This document shows positions 20,386-26,158 of a DNA stretch of 64,000 bases, piece after piece. The stretch is taken from positions 2,208,001 through 2,272,000 of the forward strand of contig OY969767.1 of assembly GCA_963702895.1 (NCBI GenBank). Reading direction: 5' to 3'. A program made the translations under genes and the position numbers. Positions within the stretch are counted from its first letter, which is position 1, and every line of letters begins with the position of its first letter. The notes beneath the pieces are model-generated. The model saw only the letters and a list, made by a program, of their open reading frames with translations, searched no databases and was not told the origin of the DNA. The DNA comes from an uncultured Elusimicrobia bacterium. GTDB taxonomy: Bacteria > Elusimicrobiota > Elusimicrobia > 2-01-FULL-59-12.

Positions 20386-20449
20386 AGTTCAAATGAATTT
20401 TGCATGGCTGACTTCAGACTGTAACTTTCGCTCGTTACCCTCAAGTAGC

Positions 20450-23400
20450 ATGCGCTTCTTACTAAGGACGAAAGAATCGCTCCTGTGCCTTGTGCTGCTT
20501 TTGGGAGGCGTCCCCCTTTTGGCTTCGGGCCCAACCGATGCCAAGGGGCTCAAGCGGCCCGATTGGAGCCGCCGCCCCCGTACGGTCCTCTACGAACCGA
20601 GCCCGAACGCGACACCCGCTCAAAGACAAGCGCTTCGAAATGTTTTGAAACGTCACGGGCTGGCTCGAAAACGGTCATTCGCCGGCGGCAAAATGGAGCA
20701 TGCCGAAGCCCCGGTGACGATCACCCAACCCGAGGAATCAATCGCCCGCGAACTGGAAGCCACGGGGGCGGTCCTTTTTGCCGAACCCGATTATGCCCTG
20801 AGCCCCCAACAAATCCCCAATGACCCTCTCTACACGCAGCAATGGCACCATGGAGCCATCCGCTCGCCTGAAGCGTGGGACATCACGCGCGGCGCCGACA
20901 CCGTGCTTGTGGCGCTCTGCGATACGGGAGTGGATGCCCATCACCCGGATTTAGTTGAAAACCTGCAGCTGCCAGGCTTGAACAGCGCCGATCTCTCCAG
21001 CAATACCGACGACGCGGTGGGTCACGGGACCGCGGTCGCGGGCCTCTTGGGCGCTCAAGGAAACAATCTACAAGGTGTCGCTGGCGTGGCCTGGAACGTG
21101 AAGATCGTTCCGGTGCGTGTCACCAATGACACGGTCTCCGGCAGCGCCTATCTCTCGGACATCGCCGAAGGCATCCGCTGGGCAGCGGGCCAGGGTGCAA
21201 GGGTCATCAATTTAAGCTACGGCGCCGGCGGAAGCGCCACGATCGCCTCCGCGGCAGGTGAGGCGCGCCACCAGGGAGCTCTGACTTTTGTCGCGGCCGG
21301 CAATGACGGCCTCGAGATGGACATCCCGAATTACCCTTCGCTGATCCTTGTGGGCGCGACGGACCCTGCGGACAGCCGCGCGTCATGGTCCAATTACGGG
21401 AACGCGGTGGATCTGGTGGCGCCCGGGCTGAATTTAGAAACCACGCTGCGGCGCCGGCTCTACGGCCCCGTGAGCGGGACCTCCGGCGCTGCTCCGATCG
21501 CGGCCGGCGCCGCAGCCTTGATCTTATCTGCCAACCCCTCGCTCGACCCAGATCAGGTGGAAGAAGCGCTCGGGTCGACCGCCAAGGATCTCGGGGCGCC
21601 CGGCACGGACACCGTTTATGGTCAGGGACTGGTCGATGTCGGCGCTGCCGTCGCGCTGGCCAAGACCCTATCGGGCGGGATCGGAGGCTCCGGCGCTGGG
21701 GGTGGAGCGTCCGGACCGGGCTCCGGAGGCGGAGGAACGGGGTCCAATGCTGCCATCGAAGGAACGCTCGAGGTCTTGGTGGAGGAAGATTTTGTCCAAT
21801 ACGTTCGATATCGATATTTCTTGAAGACGCGATCGGAGCGTCTCGAGATACAATTTTCTCCAGGGAGTGACCTCTCCCATCTGAAGACGGGCATGAGCGT
21901 TCGATTGCGCGGTGCCGAGCGTTCGGGCAGCATGCTTTCGGTTCCCCCTATCAGTCCCTCGAACTTGGAGGTGATTTCGGCCCCCGCCATGCTCACGACC
22001 GGCGAACACAAAGTGGCGGTGCTCCTCGTCAACTTCCAAAATGACACGCGTCAGCCCTGGACGCCGACCCAAGCCTATAACACCGTGATTGTCTCCGGAG
22101 GCAATTACTACAAGAGCGCTTCTTACGATCTCACGTGGTTGACGGGGAACGTCTTTGGCTATTACACCTTGCCCATCAATGTTCCTTCCACATGCGATCC
22201 CGACCAAATTCAAAACCTTGCCGACGCTGCCGCCGCAGCGGCGGGCGTCAATCTTTCGGGATATACGCATGTGATGTATGCCTTCCCGCGAGTGAGCGCC
22301 TGCAGCTGGGCGGGTCTTGCCAGCATCGGAGGCCCCGCGTCCTGGATCAACGGGTATCTGGACACGCGGGTCGTCCCCCATGAATTAGGCCACAATTACG
22401 GGATGCGCCATTCCCACTCCACCGACTGCGGCTCTGTCCCTTACACGCCCGGTCGCAGCGGCTGCGCGCAGGATGAATACGGGGACCTCTATGCCACCAT
22501 GGGGAGCGGGTATCCTTTTGGCCACCATTTTAACGCTCCTCATAAGGAACTGATGAAATGGACCACCATCCAAAATGTCACCGCAAGCGGCGTTTACACC
22601 TTAACACCGATCAATTCGGCCGCCTCCGGCACGAAGGGCATCAAAGTGACGGCGACGGGTGCGACGTCAGAGACCTACTACTTGGAGTACAACACGCAAT
22701 TTACGAACGCCCAATATGTTCCCGGCGCGGTACTCCGTTTAGGGAAGACCGAAACGTGGCTCTTGGACATGACCCCCGGCAGCTTATCGTCGGATTTCTA
22801 CGACCCGGTCCTGCCTGTCGGCCGGTTCTACACCGAGCCGGTCCAAGGAATCACCTTTACCCCGATCCGTGCCGATGCTTCCGCGCTGCAGATTCAAATC
22901 AACTTCGAAGGGACGCCCAATACGCCCCCGACGATCAGCGTGGCGCCAGCCGCCACGCCCAATCCCGTGACCAGCACCACGACCCTTTTGTCCGTTCTGG
23001 GGGCCGATGACGGCGGGGAAGCGGGTCTCCTCTACAGCTGGTCGACGACCGGCACGCCGCCGGCCGCAGTCACCTTCACCGCCAATGGCTCGAACGCCGC
23101 CAAGAACACGACCGCGCGCTTCACGAAGGCCGGCAGCTACAGTTTCCTCGTCACGATCCGCGATCCGGGCGGCCTCACCGTCACAAGTCCTGTGAATGTC
23201 ACGGTGAACCAGACGCTCACCATCGTGACGGTGAGCCCGGCCGACGTCAGCGTACAGGTCGGCCGCACACAAACCTTTAGCGCAAGCGGCTTGGATCAAT
23301 TTGGGCAGCTCTTGTCCAGTCCCCCCACCTTTGTCTGGGCGGTTTCGGGGGGCGGGACTATTTCAACCACGGGGCTTTTCACCGCGGGCGCGGTCGCGGG

Positions 23401-24109
23401 GGGTCCTTTCACCGTGACGGCCTCCGCGGGCGGAATATCCGGCAGCGCGACGGTGCGTGTTGAAGAGATCGCGCCGCCGCCGCCTCCTCCGCCTCCCCCT
23501 CCTCCTCCGGAAGTGCTGCCGGCCCCGGTTCTGCGTCTACCCGAATACATGACCGTAGACGGCACCTTGAGCGTAGAATACGACCCGGCGCTTGCCAGCA
23601 TCAGCTTTATCTGGGAGATCGAGTGGCTGAGCGGCAGCTTAGGAGGAGCGGCCCCACGGCCTGGGGCAAGTTCTGCTCTGGGGAGAGCCTTGCGTGCCGG
23701 TTTTCGCACGACGAGCCCCGTCGCGAGCCTGGCGAGCTACCACTTGGATCCGGGCTACTATCAGATCACGGTGCAGGCCACCGATGGCGGGAGTCGGGTC
23801 TCTACGCCGGCTCAAGGCTATGTCACCTTGGTCGCGTCCAATTTGGACCATGTGCGCGCGTTTCCGAACCCCTGGCGGAGCGATCGCCATACGGGCGGCG
23901 TGACGCTCGATGGGCTCACCCTTCAGTCGACCGTCAAGATCTTTTCCGTATCGGGCCATGCGGTCAAAGAGTTGACCGTGACGGGAAGCGCTGCCTCCTG
24001 GGATCTCACCAATGACCAGGGCGAGAAAGTGGCCTCCGGCCTGTACCTCTACCTCATCCAAGATCCTCAAGGCGCGAAGAAAACGGGCCAACTCGTGATC
24101 ATCCGCTAA
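20450..24109 (+). CDS. Secreted dual protease: S8 subtilase plus metzincin (M11-like) domain, Ig-like domains and FlgD-Ig/T9SS-A-like CTD
   Basis: S8 triad motifs DTG, HGT, GTSGAAP; zinc motif HELGHNYGMRH; C-terminus FPNPW...WDLTND.GEKVASGLYLY. ATG 20450 gives a normal signal peptide (ORF open from 20393). Confidence 0.88.
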   Translation: MRFLLRTKESLLCLVLLLGGVPLLASGPTDAKGLKRPDWSRRPRTVLYEPSPNATPAQRQALRNVLKRHGLARKRSFAGGKMEHAEAPVTITQPEESIARELEATGAVLFAEPDYALSPQQIPNDPLYTQQWHHGAIRSPEAWDITRGADTVLVALCDTGVDAHHPDLVENLQLPGLNSADLSSNTDDAVGHGTAVAGLLGAQGNNLQGVAGVAWNVKIVPVRVTNDTVSGSAYLSDIAEGIRWAAGQGARVINLSYGAGGSATIASAAGEARHQGALTFVAAGNDGLEMDIPNYPSLILVGATDPADSRASWSNYGNAVDLVAPGLNLETTLRRRLYGPVSGTSGAAPIAAGAAALILSANPSLDPDQVEEALGSTAKDLGAPGTDTVYGQGLVDVGAAVALAKTLSGGIGGSGAGGGASGPGSGGGGTGSNAAIEGTLEVLVEEDFVQYVRYRYFLKTRSERLEIQFSPGSDLSHLKTGMSVRLRGAERSGSMLSVPPISPSNLEVISAPAMLTTGEHKVAVLLVNFQNDTRQPWTPTQAYNTVIVSGGNYYKSASYDLTWLTGNVFGYYTLPINVPSTCDPDQIQNLADAAAAAAGVNLSGYTHVMYAFPRVSACSWAGLASIGGPASWINGYLDTRVVPHELGHNYGMRHSHSTDCGSVPYTPGRSGCAQDEYGDLYATMGSGYPFGHHFNAPHKELMKWTTIQNVTASGVYTLTPINSAASGTKGIKVTATGATSETYYLEYNTQFTNAQYVPGAVLRLGKTETWLLDMTPGSLSSDFYDPVLPVGRFYTEPVQGITFTPIRADASALQIQINFEGTPNTPPTISVAPAATPNPVTSTTTLLSVLGADDGGEAGLLYSWSTTGTPPAAVTFTANGSNAAKNTTARFTKAGSYSFLVTIRDPGGLTVTSPVNVTVNQTLTIVTVSPADVSVQVGRTQTFSASGLDQFGQLLSSPPTFVWAVSGGGTISTTGLFTAGAVAGGPFTVTASAGGISGSATVRVEEIAPPPPPPPPPPPPEVLPAPVLRLPEYMTVDGTLSVEYDPALASISFIWEIEWLSGSLGGAAPRPGASSALGRALRAGFRTTSPVASLASYHLDPGYYQITVQATDGGSRVSTPAQGYVTLVASNLDHVRAFPNPWRSDRHTGGVTLDGLTLQSTVKIFSVSGHAVKELTVTGSAASWDLTNDQGEKVASGLYLYLIQDPQGAKKTGQLVIIR

Positions 24110-24134
24110 CCGGGAATCTTTTCTGAAAGCGGGC

Positions 24135-24334
24135 GCAAGTAAATTCTTTAATGACAAAAGGTCTCTCCTTGCCTTTGAAGTAGGCCGTGGTGCGACTAGC
24201 TATTTGAGCGTTTTTCTTACCGTCGCCTCGTCTTGATGCTTAAGCTGTACTCACACTTTTCTTCGTCCACGACGTCTGGACACTGTAATGGTTCGAGGCC
24301 GGGTCCCTTACGCTGCAGTTAAACGCGGCTTCCG
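24135..24334 (-). ncRNA. Candidate bridge/seek RNA of the IS110 element
   Basis: About 200 nt non-coding, 3' of the recombinase; contains 13 nt (24308-24320) identical to junction sequence 25457-25469. Confidence 0.6.
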
Positions 24335-25378
24335 TTAAGATTTCGCCAAGGCGACTCGACCAAATCGATACATCTTTTCCTTATACTTCCTCTTGTTCTT
24401 CAGGCATACCCACATGATCTCTGCCATCTTTCTGGCCACTGCCACAATAGCGACCGATGACAGCTTTCGAATTCTTCGTTGCTGATAAAAGGCTTTAAAG
24501 TACGGTGATACAGATACAGCCGTCCAACAGGCCTCGATTAATGCGTAGCGTAAATAGCGGTTACAAGACGGGATCAATCCTCCGTGATACGTCTTACCCC
24601 CTGAACTGTAGGTACTACACACCACGCCACAGTACGATGCAAACCGCGCAGCCGTCGGAAACCGTTCAATGGTGTCAATTTCCAAGGCCATCAGAGCACT
24701 TAAGATCTTGCCGACCCCAGGAAATGAATCGACAAGCTCGCGCAAAGGGTGATCCCTTAAAACCCGATCAATCCATTCTTCTGTCGCTCGAATTTGGACG
24801 CGAATCTCATCGAGCAATGCCATGTGGGATCTCAATAAATGCTGGTGCATCTCCGGAAGCTCCAAAGCCTTCAGCCACGCCCGGCCATGCGCTCCAAACA
24901 AGTCGCTTCGTTCGGGAACGTCAACATGAAGTCGGTCGAGTAAATCATGAACTCGATTCTTGATCACCGTTTGTCCCTTCACTAGCCATAGTCGGTGCCG
25001 CAATAGCGCTTTCTGTTCCCGCCGATCTCGACTCGGCACGTGGATTGTTGGGGTCACCCCCAAACGTAGCAGCAGGGCATGTGCCGTTGCATCGATTTTG
25101 TCTGTTTTGATAAACGAGTCGGCGATCAATCGTGATCTATAAGGATTGGCCAACACCGGATTCATCCCGAGATCTTCCAGAATGTCATAGGCAATGCCCC
25201 AGCTCCGTCCAGATTCCAATACACTTTGCACCGGTTCTCCTGGAGGAATCGCCTCTTTAACTTGTGCAAGACCTTCTCGCCGTGTGGGGACTTGACCTTC
25301 CCATACAATCTCGCCAGACTCCCTCATAGCCACAACCTGACAATACTTCTTGTGATGATCAATGCCGATGGATATCAT
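24335..25378 (-). CDS. IS110-family DEDD recombinase/transposase
   Basis: N-terminal IGIDHHK, KTDKIDA, PGVG, SYCG...YSSGGK, RYLRYALIEA, VAVARK motifs; RBS ggagg. Confidence 0.93.
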   Translation of the reverse strand: MISIGIDHHKKYCQVVAMRESGEIVWEGQVPTRREGLAQVKEAIPPGEPVQSVLESGRSWGIAYDILEDLGMNPVLANPYRSRLIADSFIKTDKIDATAHALLLRLGVTPTIHVPSRDRREQKALLRHRLWLVKGQTVIKNRVHDLLDRLHVDVPERSDLFGAHGRAWLKALELPEMHQHLLRSHMALLDEIRVQIRATEEWIDRVLRDHPLRELVDSFPGVGKILSALMALEIDTIERFPTAARFASYCGVVCSTYSSGGKTYHGGLIPSCNRYLRYALIEACWTAVSVSPYFKAFYQQRRIRKLSSVAIVAVARKMAEIMWVCLKNKRKYKEKMYRFGRVALAKS

Positions 25379-25472
25379 GATTTTGGGCCTCCTGGGGTTA
25401 TTAAGGTGTCTTTACCGACAGCCTTGTTTATAACTCTCTTGAGGCCCGCTTTCATATTACGCTGCAGTTGTC

Positions 25473-25498
25473 GTCATCCCGGTGAAAACCGGGATCCA
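25473..25498. repeat. RPE/REP-like palindrome GTCATCCCGG-N-CCGGGATCCA
   Basis: gtcatcccggtgaaaaccgggatcca; same family at 27561-27642 and 28047-28175. Confidence 0.75.
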
Positions 25499-25558
25499 GT
25501 CCATCGGATTCCAAGGTGTTACACTTGACACAGGCCCCCGCAGCCGCCAGACTTGAGC

Positions 25559-26158
25559 ATGTCCGAAAGATCACTCAAGTCCCTGTTCGCCGTCGCGCTC
25601 TTGATTCTGGTGGCGCTTTATTGGCACAGCCATCGCCCCTCTCCTGCCCGCTCCGGGCCGCTCGTCCGGGAGGTGCCGGAAATCGGCTCACCTGCCGCGC
25701 CGCCCTTTCCCTACAAGAAGCACACGATCACGCCCATCGCGTCGATCAAGTTCCGCGCGCGGGTTCTGTCCACCGAGCGCTATTACGCCGACCGTGGCGC
25801 GAAGCTCTCCCCGATGGACCTGGCCATCGGCTGGCGCGGGATGTCCGACTCGGCCTATCTCAAAGACCTCAAAATCTCGCAGTTCATGCGCTGGTACTAT
25901 TTCCGCTACAAAGAAGCGCCGCTCTCGGATGACACCATCTACCAGCAGAGCAAGAATGTCCACCTAATCCCTGCCCAGCGCCAGACGTGGAAGCGCCTGC
26001 AGTCTGTTCGTACGGGACATGTGGTCCGCGCGCGGGGCTCGCTCGTCAATATCACGGGGCCCAACGGCTTCACCTGGAACAGCCATCCCACCCTTGGCGG
26101 CTCCGGCCAGGGATCGTGCTGGCTGATGTGGGTGGAGGACGTTCAGATCGAGAATTAA
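25559..26158 (+). CDS. Hypothetical protein with an N-terminal membrane anchor
   Basis: About 200-aa ORF with hydrophobic N-terminal segment LFAVALLILVALYW. Confidence 0.75.
   Translation: MSERSLKSLFAVALLILVALYWHSHRPSPARSGPLVREVPEIGSPAAPPFPYKKHTITPIASIKFRARVLSTERYYADRGAKLSPMDLAIGWRGMSDSAYLKDLKISQFMRWYYFRYKEAPLSDDTIYQQSKNVHLIPAQRQTWKRLQSVRTGHVVRARGSLVNITGPNGFTWNSHPTLGGSGQGSCWLMWVEDVQIEN

Follow-up and report, generated by a model that had tools for sequence, protein, structure and literature searches.

A 13-nt junction self-match in an IS1111-type element at a REP-like repeat is best read as a short target guide, core complement, handshake and scaffold bases

In the published accounts of IS621 (PMC11208160, PMC11208158), the right guide of the target loop pairs with top-strand positions 10–14 and is followed by the complement of the core and then by a two-base handshake guide. 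The same papers describe the handshake guide as pairing with donor positions 6–7 after top-strand exchange, and greater handshake pairing at that stage is reported to favour insertion and disfavour excision (PMC13626964). The seekRNAs of four IS1111 elements, ISEc11, ISPa11, ISKpn4, and ISPst6, are described as essential and programmable, and expression in the IS1111 family is attributed to a promoter at the circle junction (Siddiquee et al. 2024, PMC11187229).

Elements of the IS1111 group carry subterminal inverted repeats of 7–17 bp with short terminal extensions beyond them, and their longer, RNA-carrying non-coding region lies downstream of the transposase gene. Bridge RNA predictions cover 93% of IS1111 elements, and the complementarity to target and donor in them measures 8–14 nt. 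IS110-family elements that target REP sequences were reportedly described by Tobes and Pareja in 2006.

The locus examined here lies in a window of 64,000 nt, the whole stretch of DNA that was analysed, and is an ordinary IS1111-type, IS110-family, RNA-guided insertion sequence. A first-pass annotation of the letters had assigned it to IS110/IS1111, and the Pfam and NCBIfam matches and the subterminal repeats bear this out: the family is IS110 and the type IS1111. The element and its gene are laid out as follows.

24120..25461, minus strand: insertion sequence, IS1111-type, 1342 bp without the core, delimited by the flank join and the ends of five copies
24335..25378, minus strand: transposase gene, 347 aa, DEDD type, IS110 family by Pfam and NCBIfam; stop codon at 24335–24337
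25444..25454, minus strand: left subterminal inverted repeat, TGAAAGCGGGC in the transposase sense, the inverted partner of 24124–24134
24124..24134, minus strand: right subterminal inverted repeat, GCCCGCTTTCA in the transposase sense; a TTTCAGA(A/G)AAG end is conserved in relatives

The transposase has an N-terminal DEDD/RuvC-like domain, matching PF01548 over residues 4–151 (E 6.8e-19), and a C-terminal Transposase_20 domain, matching PF02371 over residues 214–299 (E 2.6e-22), and scores 229 bits with NCBIfam NF033542, against a cut-off of 140. Its length is inside the IS1111 range of 330–350 aa, and its frame is open in all five copies of the element. In an alignment of 33 homologues, E55, D93, D96, and S255 are invariant and D7 is nearly so; by analogy with IS621, these residues would have catalytic roles. 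The non-coding region measures 215 nt downstream of the gene versus about 76 nt upstream, so that the RNA side is downstream, as the IS1111 group requires. The subterminal repeats form an 11-bp inverted pair with terminal extensions of 7 nt on the left (CGTAATA, 25455–25461) and 4 nt on the right (GAAA, 24120–24123), which is the IS1111 arrangement. In relatives, the place of the left repeat is held by TGAAAG or TGAAAA.

The feature of interest is a self-match. The 13-mer ttacgctgcagtt occurs at 24308–24320, where it ends 14 nt from the stop codon, and again at 25457–25469, across the opposite junction, just as the first-pass annotation had stated. A given 13-mer is expected to recur in the 215-nt non-coding region about 3e-6 times, by simple arithmetic, and the self-match is not due to chance. 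The annotation had also joined the two flanks at a shared TT and found the resulting string to match 24299–24320 at 19 of 22 positions; the arithmetic is correct, with 3 of 22 positions differing. The observation is thus confirmed. The interpretation placed on it, a target guide of 13 nt that might continue across the core, is partly supported, as set out below.

Because the long self-match includes the element's own end, the ends must be taken from empty sites before any guide is read. One CT core copy (AG in the transposase sense) flanks the element on each side, at 24118–24119 and 25462–25463. When the flanks of the window copy, copy A, are joined through a single CT/AG, they agree over 32 nt with unoccupied repeat copies, e.g., the one at genome position 1082907. 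Exact counts over the whole genome found 13 unoccupied target sites reading AACTGCAGATTCC and 6 reading AACTGCAGTTTCC. These 19 read ...AACTGC-AG-(A/T)TTCC..., and by a genome-wide exact count TTACG/CGTAA is absent from every one of them. The flank join reproduces the unoccupied sites; therefore, the element is 24120–25461, the core is CT, and ttacg (25457–25461) is the element's tip. Copies and empty alleles, which the annotation had proposed as a way to settle the ends, have thus settled them. Its own empty site, joined at the shared TT, fails here, as 19 of 19 unoccupied copies lack CGTAA, and a fuzzy search for that site returned nothing but internal copies belonging to the element and shorter variants of the repeat. 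By the annotation's own account its reading would fall if the true end included the 13-mer, and this is partly the case: the end takes in 5 of the 13 bases, ttacg, the other 8 being core and flank.

The search for copies covered the whole genome, which is one contig of 2.72 Mb, and found five (A–E), with termini common to all five and similar flanks. Copies A, B, and C are identical, whereas D and E are about 81–83% identical to A overall. Copy D (G000:C1:416569-417910) is identical to A over the first 319 nt in the transposase sense, a span comprising the left end and the gene's first third, after which identity falls to 47–85% per 100 nt. This pattern suggests that two diverged siblings have recently undergone gene conversion or recombination with each other. 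The right end of the sibling copies D and E (L012 and L013) has one more A (TTTCAGAAAA-AG), and their internal right donor guide is unchanged. The reconstructed D/E target has no exact unoccupied match genome-wide; the nearest sequence is a repeat subfamily with an extra A.

A flank-motif scan of the genome places the flanks in an abundant REP-like repeat, which the element interrupts.

24107..24119, plus strand: left part of the interrupted REP-like repeat, taaccgggaat and core ct, identical to unoccupied copies
25462..25515, plus strand: right part of the repeat, core ct, gcagtt, and the palindrome, identical to unoccupied copies

The palindrome, atcccgg-tgaaaa-ccgggat at 25476–25495, is the one the first-pass annotation had pointed out next to the site. 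In the transposase sense, the commonest unoccupied form of the repeat reads ...GGATCCCGGTTTTCACCGGGATGACGACAACTGCAGATTCCCGG(C/T)TA. The REP-like family has several subfamilies genome-wide (...GGGATGACGACAACTGCAGATTCC..., ...GGGGTGACGGCAACTGCAGTTTCC..., and ...GGGGTGACGTCAACAGAAGATTCC...), and three tandem copies of the repeat stand near genome position 1380379–1380598. The ORF at 20393–24109, which stops immediately short of the insertion site, codes for a protein of 1238 aa whose N-terminal part is subtilase-like and which also has a stretch of about 12 prolines and a C-terminal tail.

The segment that contains the inner 13-mer folds, according to a covariance model, into a target loop followed by a donor loop.

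24238..24370, minus strand: bridge/seek RNA region, four helices, target loop then donor loop

The region begins within the 3′ end of the transposase ORF. In the four-helix model, R1, the target loop is built from an outer stem and an inner hairpin, and the donor loop likewise from an outer stem and a hairpin. R1 has a single match in the window (24238–24370, minus strand, 97.3 bits, E 4e-26); it also matches 79 of 82 sources, in every case on the strand of the transposase gene and immediately 3′ of it. Over 73 distinct sequences, 91.2% of cells are paired, versus 33–53% when the partners are slid by 1–3 columns; helix 1 reaches 98.3%. Compensatory changes occur in 17 of 21 pairs, and the covariation score was equalled in 0 of 500 shuffles. 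The alignment behind these counts (A4) was fitted to the model beforehand, which favours the structure. Unaided, RNAalifold on 37 sequences recovered the outer stem with 9 pairs, of which 6 show compensatory changes. A single-RNA fold was no better than shuffles (z 0.81), and an Rfam scan over 23900–25700 with E up to 1 matched no family. Among sequencing runs containing the stretch, no RNA run is listed; two runs of DNA or unknown type are, with shares of 0.08–0.09. An alternative pairing of GCCG/CGGC versus GTTG/CGAC as the stem closing the guide loop was rejected, as the inner hairpin and the outer stem account for these bases. By the covariation of its structure, the covariation of guides and flanks described below, and the empty sites that fix the CT core, the region qualifies as a bridge/seek RNA, one that would be transcribed and bound by the transposase.

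Read as minus-strand RNA, the 13-mer is AACUGC-AG-CG-U-AA, complementary to plus-strand ttacg-ct-gcagtt, which comprises the element's last five bases, the core, and six flank bases. The 13-mer very probably represents the 3′ side of the target loop of an IS1111-type element inserted at the CT of a REP-like repeat, and it divides into guide (6), core complement (2), handshake (2), and scaffold (1 + 2). This assignment draws on sequence comparison and on analogy with IS621. The parts of the target loop are proposed to be as follows.

24315..24320, minus strand: right target guide AACUGC, complementary to the plus-strand flank gcagtt, 25464–25469
24313..24314, minus strand: core complement AG, which would pair with the CT core; columns A57 and G58 are invariant in the 37-sequence alignment
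24311..24312, minus strand: handshake guide CG, complementary to the element's last two bases cg, 25460–25461
24297..24310, minus strand: scaffold, made up of U (24310), which is unpaired, and the outer stem's 3′ strand, AAGGGACCCGGCC; it comprises the last 3 bases of the 13-mer and ccggg
24338..24347, minus strand: left target guide GGCGAAAUCU, ending in core CU and abutting the stop codon, within the last codons of the transposase

The right target guide is complementary to the flank at 6 of 6 positions in copies A and C and at 5 of 6 in copy B. The handshake CG fits the donor dinucleotide cg by complementarity and does not fit the target dinucleotide at. In most relatives, the RNA has AU and the end starts with AT, whereas in the clade of copies A–E and relative L014, CG faces CG. 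That is, the RNA bases and the element end have changed together. By its place and its complementarity, the CG at 24311–24312 qualifies as a handshake guide in the IS621 sense, a role it would play by analogy. The next three bases are scaffold: in the 73 sequences, the stem pair involving 24309 is UA in 73 of 73, and that involving 24308 is UA in 45, CG in 27, and AU in 1. These two conserved or covarying stem pairs and the invariant unpaired U argue that 24308–24310 are not guide. Thus, of the 13 nt first taken for a target guide, 6 read the target, 2 the core, and 2 the handshake, and the last 3 belong to the scaffold.

The first-pass annotation had looked for a reverse-complement guide by eye and reported none. 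A candidate is present at 24347–24338, and its place follows the family pattern. Compared in the same sense with the flank gggaat-ct (24112–24119), it shows five contiguous matches (AATCT) and agrees at 6 of the last 8 positions; with the copy C flank, cgaaaa-ct, it agrees at 7 of 8. No perfect match to it was found in the genome among the sequences following AACTGCAG. The assignment of this left target guide is weak here. In the window, the 5′ third of the RNA (24338–24370), which comprises one outer-stem strand and the left target guide, falls within the final codons of the transposase gene. The same bases would therefore serve protein and RNA, and retargeting the left guide would alter C-terminal residues.

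Two further segments are candidate donor guides.

24256..24262, minus strand: right donor guide and core, AGAAA-AG, matching the right end CAGAAA-AG
24285..24289, minus strand: candidate left donor guide AUUAC, in the sense of attac, 25456–25460

The right donor guide varies with the right end among relatives: AGAAAAG, AGAGAAG, and AAAGAAG each match their own end. The left donor candidate is 5 nt long, stops one base short of the core, and does not include it. In relatives, matches of 4–6 nt to their own end stand about 26–27 nt upstream of the right donor guide. AUUAC is thus put forward as a candidate, the weakest of the assignments made here. The UG that comes after the right donor guide is not complementary to the target bases beside the core; it follows that the IS621 handshake scheme is realised on the target loop only.

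Siblings D and E carry the guide AAACUG-AG-CGUAA and occupy the sites CAACAG-AG and GAACCG-AG, with one internal mismatch each, at the same position. Their changed guide is a natural retargeting within one genome.

If the target loop reads the flank, guide and flank should vary together in relatives. Many protein homologues were found (48–86% identity), and the 33 aligned were used to find metagenome loci, of which there are 80 (L014–L093; 40–71% identity). A survey of 60 related genomes gave one partial homologue, in G019, and a single-protein contig scan gave one distant locus, L007; both were left out. In the relatives, the left junction reads flank-AG-[6–9 nt]-TGAAAG and the right junction CTTTCA-GA(A/G)A-AG-flank, and each relative repeats its own left junction in a segment soon after the stop codon. 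The left junction and the RNA region share a string of at least 8 nt in 25 of 42 distinct cognate pairs versus 59 of 1722 non-cognate pairs. For 25 of the 42 distinct loci, the best match to the reverse complement of the right flank, extended by CT, terminates precisely at CT. These left-guide matches precede the other guide by about 22–30 nt and often fall in the final transposase codons. The proposal that the segment after the stop codon is a bridge/seek RNA guide, readable against the flank, is upheld: cognate guide–flank matches exceed non-cognate ones.

A position profile was made from 35 loci, after L021 and L050 were dropped from the 37 aligned, as no AG could be placed in their left junctions. 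Since the relatives are kin and AG was placed by rule, the following match frequencies characterise the pattern and should not be taken as independent tests.

5 to 1 nt before the core: cognate 0.66–0.89, non-cognate about 0.3
end base 1: cognate 0.80, non-cognate 0.41
end base 2: cognate 0.69, non-cognate 0.52
end base 3: cognate 0.17, non-cognate 0.17
end base 4: cognate 0.34, non-cognate 0.34
end base 5: cognate 0.11, non-cognate 0.09
end base 6: cognate 0.14, non-cognate 0.15

The guide–flank signal exceeds background over one stretch only, which begins 5 nt ahead of the core and ends 2 nt past it. The covariation between non-coding RNA and flanks that the first-pass annotation had named as a check is present in these 35 relatives, confined to that interval. 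The profile gives the family rule: a guide of about 5–7 nt, the core, and a 2-nt handshake.

This rule leaves three bases of the 13-mer, the match of UAA to the end's TAA, to be explained. A putative promoter at the junction of the right and left ends suggests how it arose.

24133..24138, minus strand: −35 half, TTGCGC, of a putative junction promoter, with a 17-nt spacer to the −10 half TAATAT, 25454–25459

When right and left ends are joined, 36 of 39 related loci show TTGACN separated by 17 nt from a −10-like hexamer, which is mostly TAnnAT, the rest being CATGAT or TATGAA. The terminal extension is shorter in this clade (7 nt), so that the −10 box starts at end base 3 and the end reads CG-TAATAT. 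Its TAA then coincides with the conserved UAA of the scaffold, and no pairing role is needed for the extra match, which is best explained by the −10 box of the junction promoter. A sigma-70 scan found no promoter on the minus strand of the linear copy, which fits expression from a promoter created by a circular form.

How far do other accounts of the 13-mer fit these data? That the whole of it, or even the 19/22 match, is one long target guide, with the flanks joined at a shared TT in an empty allele ...aatcttacgctgcagtt..., is highly improbable. The identities it builds on are true as arithmetic, but the 19 unoccupied sites are without TTACG, and the match in the 35 relatives extends no further than 2 nt beyond the core. 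Nor does the guide continue across the core into the other flank, since ccggg, which carries the supposed continuation, is the 3′ strand of a covarying outer stem; it differs in copies D and E (GACTCGACC versus GACCCGGCC), whose flanks have not changed to match. The identity of the inner 13-mer to the junction as DNA could also be accommodated by a captured piece of junction, or by a second internal recombination site, with no guide at all. Relatives with unrelated flanks, however, carry their own flank sequence at the same position of the conserved fold, a register that repeated capture would not keep, and the three identical copies show no deletion between their two 13-mers. We give this account hardly any credence.

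An unlikely alternative, though one that takes the five-base match at face value, is an extended handshake in the clade of A–E and L014. All of CGUAA would pair with the end, two terminal U-A stem pairs would open, and the resulting 13-bp duplex with the integrated junction would act in one of two ways: by driving insertion more strongly, or by holding or marking the junction for excision. All five bases are indeed complementary to the end, against 1 of 5 for the bases that precede the core in the target itself, and L014 (71% protein identity) has CGTAA on both sides. It is the one relative outside this genome in which the extended match could be assessed at the DNA level, the closer homologues P0002–P0005 (74–86% identity) being covered as proteins. 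The bias towards insertion that accompanies more handshake pairing in the IS621 account would be in keeping with it, and so would the description of IS1111 movement as needing the correct flank, which points to a use of the RNA in excision (PMC11187229). Against it, two of the five bases form stem pairs that are conserved or covarying in 73 sequences, the family profile has no signal beyond 2 nt, and the TAA of the end is accounted for by the −10 box TAATAT at its 17-nt spacing. We estimate, moreover, that a three-base chance match in one of about ten end types is not rare. Were the handshake extended, the element would be a natural variant strongly biased towards insertion, or one that marks its junction for excision, and handshake length would be a tunable natural determinant of the direction of recombination in IS1111 elements.

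The preferred reading of the 13-mer, as guide, core complement, handshake, and scaffold, suggests the following sequence of events. The element has inserted at the CT core of a REP-like genomic repeat, and it would have been guided there by an RNA encoded from the last transposase codons into the 3′ non-coding region, about 24370–24238. By analogy with IS621, the right target guide would recognise the top (CT) strand, and in the other half-site the bottom strand would be bound by the left target guide, GGCGAAAUCU. Once the top strands have been exchanged, pairing of the handshake with the incoming donor end would favour insertion. The predicted circle junction is ...TTTCAGAAA-AG-CGTAATATG..., and restored sites would read AACTGC-AG-ATTCC. 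The 13-mer equals the junction, we suggest, for three reasons: the flank is read by the guide, the final two bases of the end are read by the handshake, and TAA happens to coincide with the scaffold UAA. The guide is not unusually long, and the findings leave the accepted picture of such elements as it was.

It follows that a long junction self-match of an IS1111 element can consist of a short guide, the core, and end-reading bases, with no long target guide. The locus is a natural example in which all four guide positions are assignable, with three identical copies, two retargeted siblings, and 19 unoccupied sites. The family data extend the guide–core–handshake layout of IS621 to a set of IS1111-type elements, and show that the 5′ part of the RNA shares sequence with the end of the transposase gene.

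Comparison with described elements gives both likenesses and differences. Like ISPpu9 as described (PMC12288879), the element sits at a fixed position and orientation in a REP element, with many repeat copies unoccupied; the host lineage and repeat family are different, and the likeness lies in the pattern of sites alone. With ISEc11, ISPa11, ISKpn4, and ISPst6 as described, it shares a DEDD transposase of about 340 aa, subterminal repeats with extensions, and a long downstream non-coding region. Also as in the seekRNA elements, there is one match per target strand, the complement of the transposase-sense top strand comes first, and a junction promoter is expected. The close siblings ISEc11 and ISXne4 (PMC11187229) are a naturally retargeted pair, as are copies A–C versus D/E here. 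Differences from the seekRNA elements, compared by their descriptions, are that the protein is a distant relative and that the RNA begins in the coding region. The donor guides and handshake dinucleotide assigned here go beyond the guides that the account of those elements (PMC11187229) describes. With IS621, as far as its published description extends, the element shares a CT core, a donor loop, and a target loop with a left guide in the top-strand sense, a complementary right guide, a core complement, and a 2-nt handshake. It differs from IS621 in its long subterminal repeats, in the bases after the right donor guide, which misfit the handshake scheme, in the three scaffold bases that match the end, and in the position of the RNA, which is 3′ of the transposase gene and on the strand opposite the CT strand. 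Read by the CT strand, the order of guides is that described for IS621; read by the transposase strand, it is the reverse of the order given in the seekRNA paper. The RNA gene thus appears to be flipped relative to the core strand.
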